Assembly: GCA_000004985.1 (NCBI GenBank)
Contig: GG739280.1
Length of the DNA: 2,200 nucleotides
Source of the DNA: Naegleria gruberi
Lineage: Eukaryota
Reading direction: 5' to 3' (one strand)
The notes below the pieces were generated by a model. It was not told where the DNA came from. It did not search any database and saw nothing but the letters and a program-made list of their open reading frames with translations. A program made the translations under genes and the position numbers. The first letter of the stretch is position 1, and each line of letters begins with the position of its first letter. This document shows positions 1-2,200 of the stretch, in pieces.

Positions 1-14
1 TCATTACTATAGTA

Positions 15-28
15 AATAGATATCTATT
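15..28. repeat. Perfect 14 bp palindrome aatagatatctatt, centred on an EcoRV site (GATATC).
   Basis: The reverse complement of 15..28 equals itself. It lies in AT-rich flank DNA, so chance occurrence is plausible. Confidence 0.4.
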
Positions 29-51
29 GGTTATAAGGGCGAAGCGTTGGG

Positions 52-72
52 TTTTTTTTTAAAGTTTTTTTA
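52..72. repeat. Homopolymer T tracts, T9 at 52..60 and T7 at 65..71, separated by aaag.
   Basis: Direct reading of the sequence. On the minus strand these are poly-A runs. Confidence 0.5.
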
Positions 73-172
73 TGATACTTTTTAATTGTACAGAAAAAAG
101 GCGCCAAATTTCAATGCCAATTTTGTAGGTTGCCATAAATCCAATAAAATTCATGGAATTAAAGAAATTAGT

Positions 173-258
173 GTGGCCGGAAAGATTTCTGGCTGGGGTA
201 TTCTAGGAAAGAGTTTCTTAAAGAAATCTTTCCTGGAAAATCCAGTAAGCAACATAAA
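173..258. repeat. Left arm of a long imperfect inverted repeat. It pairs with 1495..1580.
   Basis: The reverse complement of 1501..1580 was aligned by hand against 173..252 and gave about 60 of 80 identities. The shared blocks are gtNgccggaaagattt, aggaaagagtttc and tttcctggaaaNtcca. The arm is built from GGAAAGA(T/G)TTTC units: 177..190, 204..217, and an inverted copy at 222..235. Confidence 0.65.
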
Positions 259-281
259 AATGGAAGCAATGCTTCCTTAAT

Positions 282-325
282 AGTTTTGAGTCCGAAGCTA
301 ATTGCACAGTTTTGAGCCTCAAAGA
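282..325. repeat. Short imperfect direct repeat with a 27 bp period.
   Basis: agttttgagtccgaag at 282..297 and agttttgagcctcaaag at 309..325. Confidence 0.35.
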
Positions 326-447
326 CATCAAAAGAATATTCACAGCAAACTCAACAAAGAAGTACCTTGCATTCATAAAAAATATCAATTTTATGAGTAG
401 CTTATTTTCGGAGTGGTTCTTCATCTTCCCACTCCAAGAATTGAACC

Positions 448-1182
448 TCATCATCTATACATCATCAATATAATAGTAATAATAGTAGTTTTATGTGGAA
501 GTTTATCGTTATGGAATTAGATAGTAATTTTGATATTGGAAAAATTCAAGTTGGTGAATCATCATCAGAACACACACCAACCATCATCATTAATTTTTAC
601 CATCATTATAACAATAGTATTTGTAGACTTTAATTTGAGAATAGTATTATTTTGACAAAAGTTAATTTTTCACTAAATTGGCCAATATCTTCCGATGTAC
701 TGGACCATTATCAGAAATTCAAATGTGGGATTATTTGTAATAGTATATAGCAATACATATTCGAGTTTCATAGATTGGAATTTTGTTTTCATCAAGATAG
801 GTACATGTATATATTCAAAATAACATTGACCATATTTCAACATGTACTTCATCATCAACCAAACTTTCTTCGAATAGTACCATTCAAATACATCATCAAC
901 AACACTCCGAATAGTTTTTGGATATTTGGAGTTTTCACCTTGTTGGTGGTGTATTCATCATTCACCATATATTTTCATCATGATGATTGAATTTCAACAA
1001 CATAGTATCATTAGTAGGGATGTCTAATATCACCATCAAGAGAGTTGGAATTTTTCCACTTAGTATTCATAGAGTTGTGGAATTTTCACTTCATCATATC
1101 TTTTATCATCAATATCATCAGCAAGTCCACTTCCGATCATTAAGGTAAATATCTTAATGGTCATCATCATCATACCATCAAT
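448..1182. repeat. Cryptic, degenerate (CAT/ATC)n trinucleotide-rich low-complexity zone.
   Basis: Counted by eye, catcat/atcatc occurs more than 15 times on the plus strand. Examples are 449..454, 460..465, 560..567, 582..590, 601..606, 850..857, 891..898, 956..961, 977..982, 1092..1097, 1105..1110, 1115..1120 and 1162..1173 (catcatcatcat). At this base composition a specific 6-mer is expected about 0.25 times per 730 bp. The zone includes the 12 bp palindrome tcatcatgatga near 976..987. Confidence 0.6.
1041..1098. repeat. Imperfect tandem duplication of about 30 bp.
   Basis: Copy 1 is 1041..1070 agagttggaatttttccacttagtattcat. Copy 2 is 1071..1098 agagttgtggaattttcacttcatcat. The shared core is agagttg(t)ggaatttt(t)c(c)actt. 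Confidence 0.5.
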
Positions 1183-1251
1183 AAAATTCACTAATGGTGA
1201 ATTTTCCAACAAGGTAAATTTCAAGGTCGTAAATCTTGCTGATTTTCCACC
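1047..1251. repeat. Dispersed copies of the motif G(A)ATTTTCCA(C), all in the same orientation. They look like subterminal repeats.
   Basis: ggaatttttccact at 1047..1060, ggaattttcact at 1079..1090, gtgaattttccaac at 1197..1210 and gattttccacc at 1241..1251. Related sequence occurs in both terminal arms: ggaatttccagg at 1510..1521, and 231..245 (rc ctggattttccagga). Confidence 0.4.
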
Positions 1252-1494
1252 TTGAATTATTTCAATAATTAAATAAAATTATATTTTTATTATTAGCATT
1301 GTGTTTTCTTGTAGCAACATCTGTTTTATGTATTCTCCACTTGATTTCATCAAATAAAATAGTAAATTAGTACATGATGTCTTTTCCTAATATCATTGGT
1401 TTGCTTCAGAACAAAAAATTACAAATTAAGGTGGATTCTTCACATACAGTCACTTTTGCCATTATGGTAATAAAACAACTCAAATAAGGATGAA

Positions 1495-1580
1495 TCAATA
1501 TTGTTTACTGGAATTTCCAGGAAACATTTTTCAGCGAAACTCTTTCCTGGAAAGACCAGAGGAAAAATCTTTCCGGCTAC
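1495..1580. repeat. Right arm of the inverted repeat, the partner of 173..258.
   Basis: See the left arm. This arm also contains an internal inverted pair, tttccaggaaa (1514..1524) and tttcctggaaa (1544..1554), which are exact reverse complements of each other. They can form an 11 bp stem with a loop of about 19 nt. Confidence 0.65.
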
Positions 1581-1675
1581 AATTGCATGTTCTGTTTGTT
1601 CACAATCTCCCTAATATTTGTGTTTAACAGTTCAATATATGAAAAATGTTGATTAATCAAAATAGGAATAGTACT

Positions 1676-1681
1676 ACTTAC
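1676..1681 (-). other. 5' splice donor (GAT|GTAAGT) that ends exon 1. The intron extends toward lower coordinates and its acceptor was not identified in the window.
   Basis: Plus-strand acttac at 1676..1681 is GTAAGT on the minus strand. It sits directly after the codon for D47, at the point where homology to OYE proteins stops. Confidence 0.55.
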
Positions 1682-1822
1682 ATCCACTGCTCTGCAACGA
1701 GTGAGTGGAGCCATCACAATACGATGGGACAAAGTAATTCTCTGAGTGGCTGGAATTTTGTCAGTTCCTAATGTGAGTGGTGTGAAAAGTTTTCTTGTTG
1801 TTGATTCGAAAGTGGCAGACAT
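1682..1822 (-). CDS. First coding exon (47 codons, starts at ATG, ends in phase 0 at a GTAAGT donor) of an Old Yellow Enzyme / 12-oxophytodienoate reductase family NADH:flavin oxidoreductase. The gene is partial, with the rest outside or undetected in the window.
   Basis: Reverse-complement translation gives MSATFESTTRKLFTPLTLGTDKIPATQRITLSHRIVMAPLTRCRAVD. The block LSHRIVMAPLTRCRA plus the upstream LFTPLxLG matches the OYE/OPR N-terminal beta-hairpin (compare plant OPR '[26 protein letters not shown]' and yeast OYE1 '[26 protein letters not shown]', both recalled from memory). The frame is immediately followed by GTAAGT on the minus strand (plus 1676..1681 = acttac). Past that point the translation loses all OYE similarity and becomes AT-rich low complexity. 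The start codon lies in an aaaATG context. Confidence 0.65.
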
Positions 1823-2060
1823 TTTGATTTTTTCAAGTCAGAAAAGTATTGGAACATGAAGCGAATTTAAAGACAATATATTGAGGTAGGAATAATTTGG
1901 ATAAGGTTTGGATATTGAGTAGTGATTTTCTTGGATGTCTTTGTAGAAAGTACGTACGAATGGTCTTGAGAACGGTCTAATATTAGTGCATCTTTAAAGT
2001 ATTGATAAATTCTCAGTCGAAGTTATATTCTTGGATGTTAATAATGCCCATTTTCCAATT
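1823..2060 (-). promoter_or_regulatory. Putative 5' UTR and proximal promoter of the minus-strand OYE-family gene. It contains a cluster of TTGGAT(A/G) motifs and a TACGTA palindrome.
   Basis: The region lies immediately upstream (in minus-strand sense) of the ATG at 1822. TTGGAT occurs at 1897..1902, 1908..1913, 1931..1936 and 2031..2036, all in the same orientation. The exact 11-mer ttcttggatgt occurs at 1928..1938 and 2028..2038. GTACGTAC is at 1950..1957. No TSS or TATA box could be assigned with confidence. Confidence 0.3.
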
Positions 2061-2200
2061 TTAATTCTAATAACAACGAAAACCCCAAGAAAACAAACAA
2101 AAACTTTAAATTCTAAACGAAAGTCTTCTTTCAACTTTATCAAGGTTAACAATAACTGCACCCACATGAGCTTGATAACTACAGTTTGTATTCTTTTTTA

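Follow-up and report, generated by a model that had tools for sequence, protein, structure and literature searches.

One copy of a non-autonomous DNA transposon of the cut-and-paste type is the likely content of positions 172/173–1580 in the stretch of Naegleria gruberi DNA analyzed here. This stretch, referred to as the window, comprises 2200 bp, corresponds to a whole contig and bears the gene model NAEGRDRAFT_76948. The element, bounded by inverted repeat arms with nearly matching ends, recurs on an independent contig beside a different flank, and at its right end it adjoins the coding sequence of an Old Yellow Enzyme (OYE) gene, the similarity of which to related genes breaks off within one base of the arm terminus. 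The features of the window are as follows (coordinates are those of the window; + and − denote its strands).

1–171: flank beyond the left arm, with no OYE and no element sequence, resembling nothing retrieved; it contains no continuation of the interrupted gene
172–1580: the element, approximately 1409 bp
172–255, + strand: left terminal arm, with the terminus TGTGGCCGGAAAGATTT and GGAAAGA cores at 179 (+), 206 (+) and 227–233 (−)
230–238: motif of the TTCCWGGAA type in the left arm, reading TTCCTGGAA
256–1312: interior common to the window copy and the copy on contig L025; together with the left arm, the shared part spans 172–1312
1060–1580, − strand: element sequence taken as coding by NAEGRDRAFT_76948 (1580–1448 and 1250–1060, with a predicted intron at 1447–1251)
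1313–1497: interior found in the window copy only; L025 diverges here
1498–1581, − strand: right terminal arm, with the minus-strand terminus TGTAGCCGGAAAGATTT and GGAAAGA cores at 1549 (+), 1541–1547 (−) and 1568–1574 (−)
1515–1523 and 1544–1552: TTCCWGGAA motifs in the right arm
1581–1610, − strand: surviving start of OYE exon 2, GGAGATTGTGAACAAACAGAACATGCAATT, encoding GDCEQTEHAI; OYE similarity stops here
1611–1681, − strand: true intron 1 of the OYE gene, 71 nt, GTAAGT...TTAG, aligned with contig L024
1682–1822, − strand: OYE exon 1, Met1 to Asp47, including the motif MAPLTRCRA

The left end of the element was set by comparison with L025, which carries the second copy, and the right end by the loss of OYE similarity in comparison with L024, which carries a related OYE gene. 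Both ends are therefore independently defined.

Inverted Repeat Arms and Interior of the Element

The two arms, 84 nt each and 1242 nt apart, were 76% identical in ungapped alignment and 80.2% identical (69/86, four gap columns) in gapped alignment. The top inverted local alignment in the whole window reached a score of 79, compared with a mean of 33.5 (sd 5.1) and a maximum of 53 for 200 dinucleotide-preserving shuffles, and the inverted repeat is therefore not a chance occurrence. A preliminary description of this DNA had reported an inverted repeat of about 75% identity bracketing 1.4 kb, and these measurements bear it out.

The outermost 17 bases matched between the two ends at all positions except one (16/17), forming a near-perfect terminal inverted repeat. 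This repeat reads TGT[G/A]GCCGGAAAGATTT and is nested in the imperfect 84-bp arms. The outermost T/A pair (172/1581) is ambiguous; base 1581 at the same time completes OYE codon Ile57.

The arms had been described as assembled from GGAAAGA(N)TTTC and TTCC(A/T)GGAA units, which proved correct. The 11–12-bp unit GGAAAGA(N)TTTC was present in three copies per arm, and its GGAAAGA core in six copies, likewise three per arm; both orientations were represented in each case. TTCCWGGAA occurred three times against 0.06 expected, and GGAAAGANTTTC, with at most one mismatch, three times against 0.09 expected, with all occurrences of both motifs located in the arms.

Both arms were also found to pair internally, as had been proposed. 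DNA folding of the self-hairpins gave z-scores from −3.3 to −5.1, the value of −5.1 belonging to the left arm. When the sense transcript was folded as RNA, the arms paired with each other. The inter-arm duplex reached −89.6 kcal/mol compared with −49.6 kcal/mol for two separate hairpins; it comprised 71 base pairs, with the longest unbroken helix being just 15 bp. According to these folding models, the long-range double-stranded RNA stem suggested in the preliminary description is physically and thermodynamically plausible. In comparison with known RNA families, the arms yielded only sub-threshold matches resembling microRNA hairpins, the top one scoring 27 bits, where the gathering score is 90.

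Inside the element, no ORF was longer than 78 aa, and the five ORFs tested against Pfam gave no matches, in agreement with the earlier claim that the interior lacks ORFs. Neither the ORF list nor Pfam revealed a transposase ORF anywhere in the window. Two other claims on the interior had to be revised. It had been called low-complexity and is not: Tandem Repeats Finder detected only three tiny arrays there and none in the arms. It had also been said to carry four same-orientation copies of GAATTTTCCA. A single exact copy was found at 1199; the others were inexact, with looser variants at 1048, 1080 and 1241, a copy in the arm at 1511 and an inverted copy at 537.

Beyond the arms, no inverted symmetry was detected in the 1.2-kb interior (local score 32, shuffle maximum 37), which ruled out a larger degraded palindrome.

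A Second Copy of the Element and the Left End

Ten ORFs of the interior were looked up by exact sequence, and one of them (positions 493–630, 46 aa) was present in the public collection. It lies on L025, a contig of 3528 bp which is independent of the window contig and originates from the same ENA sample as L024. Window positions 172–1312 aligned with L025 positions 1381–2508, with 15 substitutions per 1124 aligned bases (1.33%) and 21 gap columns, so that the two copies are 98.7% identical by substitutions over 1.14 kb.

Similarity between L025 and the window sets in exactly at the left terminus TGTGGCCGG (position 172). Outside this terminus the flanks are unrelated, reading ...gaaattag in the window and ...aaacctttatt in L025. 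In a three-way alignment of the left end of the window copy, the left end of the L025 copy and the reverse complement of the right end of the window copy, similarity begins in all three from TGT[G/A]GCCGGAAAG, and the three flanks are different. Since L025 shares the terminus and not the flank, the element is present in at least two genomic contexts, and position 172 acts as a true end. A check for further copies, proposed with the preliminary description, thus yielded a contig with the same left end in different surroundings.

The left arms of the window copy and the L025 copy differ at 2 of 84 positions. Because the left arms of the two copies are nearly identical, the 20% difference between the arms of the window copy is to be regarded as a feature of the family rather than a sign of age.

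Two copies were retrieved in total, and of the L025 copy only the left end is visible; the right arm and bases 1313–1497 were seen in the window contig only. The remaining 1020 nt of L025, past the equivalent of window position 1312, contained no second arm, and the ORFs of this additional stretch of about 1 kb gave no significant Pfam match and included no transposase. Most probably, the window copy arose by internal deletion from a longer element, which L025 shows in part. Alternatively, L025 may carry something else or be rearranged in this region, or one of the two assemblies may be a mosaic. In the left flank of L025, a reverse-transcriptase-like motif was observed with E = 0.022, below the cut-off.

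Searches were also extended to other sequence collections. A metagenome scan with TTTCCTGGAAAWTCCAGTAA yielded nothing beyond chance matches of seed length, located in unrelated contigs of mostly higher GC content, and a viral scan with TGTRGCCGGAAAGATTT returned only seed-length chance matches as well. The two-block pattern of the arms had no match in bacterial and archaeal genomes or in viral contigs, and a 27-mer from the interior had none in bacterial and archaeal genomes.

The Right Junction and the Interrupted OYE Gene

The right junction was examined using L024, an ENA assembly contig carrying a copy from the OYE paralogue family, the product of which (P0128) closely matches the N. gruberi protein P0127. 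The minus strand of the window was 91% identical to L024 over positions 2182–1668, a stretch that extends from the promoter through exon 1 into intron 1. The two sequences aligned again over 1643–1581, and this alignment ended at the last base of codon Ile57. At the junction, L024 reads GCAATT/ACTTACTACTCTCAACGT (encoding TYYSQR), and the window reads GCAATT/GTAGCCGGAAAG, the latter part being the terminal sequence of the right arm. OYE similarity thus breaks off within one base of the arm terminus, as would be expected of an insertion boundary.

Uninterrupted counterparts of this site were found in several sequences. In L024, exon 2 is one unbroken ORF up to the stop codon. In Naegleria lovaniensis (L026), codons 1–184 form one continuous stretch, which places the site within an exon in this species as well, and no element-like sequence was detected in its 21-kb OYE locus. 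The metagenomic ORFs P0003 and P0005 read straight across the insertion site. The comparison with a site lacking the insertion, also proposed earlier, is thereby provided by a related gene; the empty sites are those of a paralogue (L024) and an orthologue (N. lovaniensis), not of an allele, and they verify the right junction only.

As judged from these alignments, the element interrupts exon 2 of the OYE coding sequence directly after codon Ile57. The preliminary description had placed it inside intron 1. This location does not stand: intron 1 occupies 1681–1611, and 30 more coding bases (ten codons) precede the element.

The annotation of the interrupted gene was traced using the 47-aa exon-1 peptide. 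A word-indexed protein search with this peptide gave no match. An exhaustive HMMER search identified the 164-aa protein EFC35397/XP_002668141 (NAEGRDRAFT_76948, P0001), which was 100% identical over the peptide. An 81-aa read-through ORF had no record in the exact-sequence look-up. Against Pfam PF00724, the exon-1 peptide aligned with profile positions 1–29 at E = 0.004, which is short of the curated cut-off. The peptide is identical to the N-terminus of the N. gruberi protein P0011, and P0011 shares the first 57 residues with the window and then continues as TYYSQRATPGG.

The gene model of 164 aa could be rebuilt exactly from the window, with exons at 1822–1682, 1610–1448 and 1250–1060 and introns at 1681–1611 and 1447–1251. 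The first 171 of its 495 coding bases are OYE sequence, and the other 324, corresponding to two-thirds of the protein, represent right-arm and interior sequence of the element in translation. The 164-aa protein of NAEGRDRAFT_76948 is an artefact in which the first 57 OYE codons are fused to translated transposon sequence. We infer that the interrupted OYE copy is a truncated pseudogene from which the remaining 326 codons have been cut off.

The OYE family of N. gruberi, recently expanded in this species, comprises no fewer than three full-length paralogues with mutual identities above 90%, together with a partial one. The closest OYE paralogue of the window copy is NAEGRDRAFT_74148 (EFC38127), located on a 261-kb scaffold.

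The Left Flank and Alternative Explanations

The sequence on the other side of the element is of a different nature. Bases 1–171 showed no similarity to L024 or L025. The flanks of the element read ...GAAATTAG/T on the left and A/ATTGCATG on the right, without a direct repeat in register, and the left flank is not the OYE target. Because bases 1–171 are not OYE sequence, no target-site duplication can be read. On sequence comparison, insertion with duplication is demonstrable at one junction only, not from end to end.

Several candidates for the left side were considered and rejected. A 4-bp AATT duplication (166–169 and 1581–1584) would leave a 3-nt spacer that is absent from L025, and the sequence following it is not OYE. 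TA and TTAA duplications, as well as a CACTA terminus, were unsupported by the alignment of the three ends. The peptide ISIYYSN, encoded at 23–1 with a preceding AG, was considered as the next OYE exon. It was discarded because nucleotide similarity to L024 is lacking in its region and no intron occurs at that place in the intact paralogue.

The likeliest causes of the mismatch of the left flank are a rearrangement after the insertion or the fusion of two repeat copies in one 2.2-kb contig. The junction between OYE and the element is real in either case. Such an origin has a substantial, if less than even, chance of being correct. The element would then be real and its two flanks would derive from different loci, either through an assembler merging reads of two near-identical copies or through a true recombination or deletion between copies that removed the rest of the OYE gene. 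It would fit the lack of similarity of bases 1–171 to OYE, L024 and L025, the missing target-site duplication, and the size of the contig, which at just 2200 bp makes up the whole record. It would also fit a separate N. gruberi contig of 10.5 kb that starts mid-gene with a 3′ part of OYE identical to P0011 (P0126, EFC35798). However, the junction between OYE and the element persists under this view, and its position within one base of the arm terminus is expected of a true insertion and unlikely for a random chimera. A mosaic or rearranged contig therefore supplements the transposon reading and does not replace it.

It is rather improbable that the segment forms part of a larger, possibly autonomous element, in which the left arm would be an internal copy of the terminus and the far end would lie beyond the contig. 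The OYE gene does not resume past the left arm, and L025 has at least 1020 nt of additional sequence after the equivalent of position 1312 with no second arm, both of which would agree with a larger element. However, L025 resembles the window precisely up to the left terminus, and beyond that point its DNA shows no relation to window positions 1–171. Since the flank of L025 is unrelated, these positions do not belong to a shared larger element, and position 172 is an end in two contexts.

An origin as an introner-like intron made by a transposon, placed directly after codon 57 and spliced out so that the gene remains functional, is very improbable. As in introners, the element is located inside a coding exon and starts on the coding strand with GT (ATT/GTAGCC), and pairing of the arms in RNA could bring its two ends together. 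In contrast to introners, AG is missing from the boundary at the far end (...GGCCACA/CTAATT), and the reading frame stays broken; the contig does not contain the downstream exon, and nothing in 1–171 encodes TYYSQRA. Moreover, the sole gene model continues into the element rather than removing it as an intron. The outcome that the preliminary description itself had named as its refutation, a non-mobile, single-copy inverted duplication of local origin, can be practically set aside: the arms are just 76–80% identical and no target-site duplication was seen, but the same terminus adjoins a different flank in a second copy (98.7% identical by substitutions), and the imperfection of the arms recurs in the left arm of L025 as a feature of the family.

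Comparison with Known Element Types and Proposed Mechanism

The transposon reading can be set against known kinds of elements. Ds (Ac/Ds, hAT) and dSpm (En/Spm, CACTA) likewise combine a near-perfect short terminal inverted repeat, here 16/17, with a multi-copy subterminal motif in both orientations. As with them, the window element is without a transposase ORF, and one of its ends and most of its interior recur in a longer or different relative. By analogy, the architecture resembles that of non-autonomous derivatives of the Ds/dSpm type, and the likeness to the subterminal repeats of hAT, Mutator and CACTA elements is to be read as a resemblance only. The termini TGT[G/A]GCC are presumably distinct both from the CACTA terminus and from those of hAT elements. 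Several transposon groups related to integrases have termini of the TG...CA type, which may serve as a lead only. Target-site duplications are 8 bp in hAT, 9–11 bp in Mutator and 3 bp in CACTA elements.

With MITEs of the Tourist and Stowaway kinds, the element shares a non-coding, AT-rich sequence bounded by inverted repeats, the capacity to fold back and the association with a gene. MITEs are usually shorter than about 800 bp, whereas the window element has 1409 bp, with two copies retrieved; no TA or TAA duplication, a trait of MITEs, was seen at its ends. Foldback elements (Drosophila FB) are similar in that the arms are composed of short repeated units and each forms its own hairpin. The difference lies in the arms of 84 bp, each about 6% of the element, which are not long arrays of tandem subrepeats, and in an interior without inverted symmetry. 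Of the mobile-element label originally given, a non-coding element with terminal inverted repeats that occurs repeatedly was therefore retained, and the designations MITE (1409 bp) and foldback element (84-bp arms) were dropped.

Repeats constitute about 3.4% of the genome of N. lovaniensis and include CMC-EnSpm and PiggyBac elements, according to the available part of PMC6125883, and those of N. gruberi are mostly unclassified, as reported in the available part of PMC12344493. In the same portions of this literature on Naegleria repeats (PMC6125883, PMC12344493), no description of the element or its termini was found, and literature searches yielded none of the element either.

The events leading to the present window can be pictured as follows. 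A transposase encoded elsewhere would bind the GGAAAGA(N)TTTC units and the termini, pair the two ends, and then excise and reinsert the element. Insertion after codon Ile57 in exon 2 of one member of the OYE family would have truncated the gene. The gene predictor then continued into the element, giving rise to the chimeric 164-aa "protein".

It is also conceivable, although we consider it unlikely, that the family has recently been active in N. gruberi as a transposon with 17-bp termini and six GGAAAGA(N)TTTC sites serving as a putative transposase-binding code. Recent activity would fit because the two copies differ by 1.3%, the interrupted OYE gene keeps the first 57 residues of its paralogue, and the termini are sharp.

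Significance

The immediate consequence is a correction of the annotation, as NAEGRDRAFT_76948 (XP_002668141) is not a real 164-aa protein. In addition, a transposon-associated truncation is documented in a gene family of recent expansion. A DNA element can now be described with precise ends and its internal arrangement of motifs, and this in a genome with mostly unclassified repeats, as far as the available part of PMC12344493 reports. Otherwise, this is an ordinary transposon insertion with no sign of a new mechanism. If an intact transposase is present somewhere in the genome, the family would represent an active cut-and-paste system of a heterolobosean that is uncharacterised and possibly unclassified, and it would be a candidate genetic tool for N. 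gruberi.

Second Copy of the Element and the Arm Palindrome

The element, the proposed non-autonomous terminal-inverted-repeat DNA transposon, has a second copy on the 3528-bp contig L025. Directly outside the left end of this copy, positions 1247-1380 of L025 translate as ...LIHPAQRGFRRLASTTDQLVIV..., which resembles a reverse-transcriptase motif; against Pfam RVT_1, the match was below the cut-off (E = 0.022). The second copy may lie inside a decayed retroelement. Beyond the point at which the two element copies diverge, about 1 kb of L025 follows (2509-3528), which may be part of a longer form of the element. For the 144-aa ORF located there, a family search returned no significant match. 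The arms of the element carry the palindrome TTCC(A/T)GGAA, which has the form of the STAT/GAS-type binding site TTCNNNGAA, a likeness that is probably coincidental.

Features of the element copies:
L025 2904-3338, minus strand: low-complexity ORF, 144 aa
Window 230-238, 1515-1523 and 1544-1552: TTCC(A/T)GGAA in the arms
L025 1410-1418: fourth copy of TTCC(A/T)GGAA, where the left arm in the window reads TTCTAGGAA

Annotated Protein NAEGRDRAFT_76948

The window carries on its minus strand a copy of the Old Yellow Enzyme (OYE) gene that is cut by the element, and a public gene prediction spans both:
Window 1060-1822, minus strand: NAEGRDRAFT_76948, product XP_002668141/EFC35397, 164 aa

This product is a chimeric prediction, in which the start of OYE (residues 1-57) is joined to residues 58-164, translated from the arm and interior of the transposon. 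The predicted intron crossed by the element-derived part (1447-1251) is invented.

OYE Paralogues and Gene Family

Intron 1 follows Asp47, the same codon, in both the window copy and the intact, element-free N. gruberi paralogue on contig L024, with a length of 71 nt (1611-1681) versus about 117 nt (526-642), respectively. The N. lovaniensis orthologue lacks intron 1, and its single intron follows codon 184.

Upstream of the ATG at 1822, a block of about 180 nt (window 1904-2083) is near-identical to L024, with 3 mismatches, whereas conservation is far lower, with many indels, in intron 1 and in the more distal 5' flank. The block may represent a conserved promoter or 5'-UTR segment of the OYE paralogue family.

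At least three full-length OYE genes, mutually more than 90% identical, were found on different large scaffolds of N. gruberi. A 10.5-kb scaffold carries at its edge a further, partial gene, whose product matches the last 249 residues of the N. gruberi OYE protein P0011 exactly. These genes represent either a recent expansion of the gene family or unmerged haplotypes.
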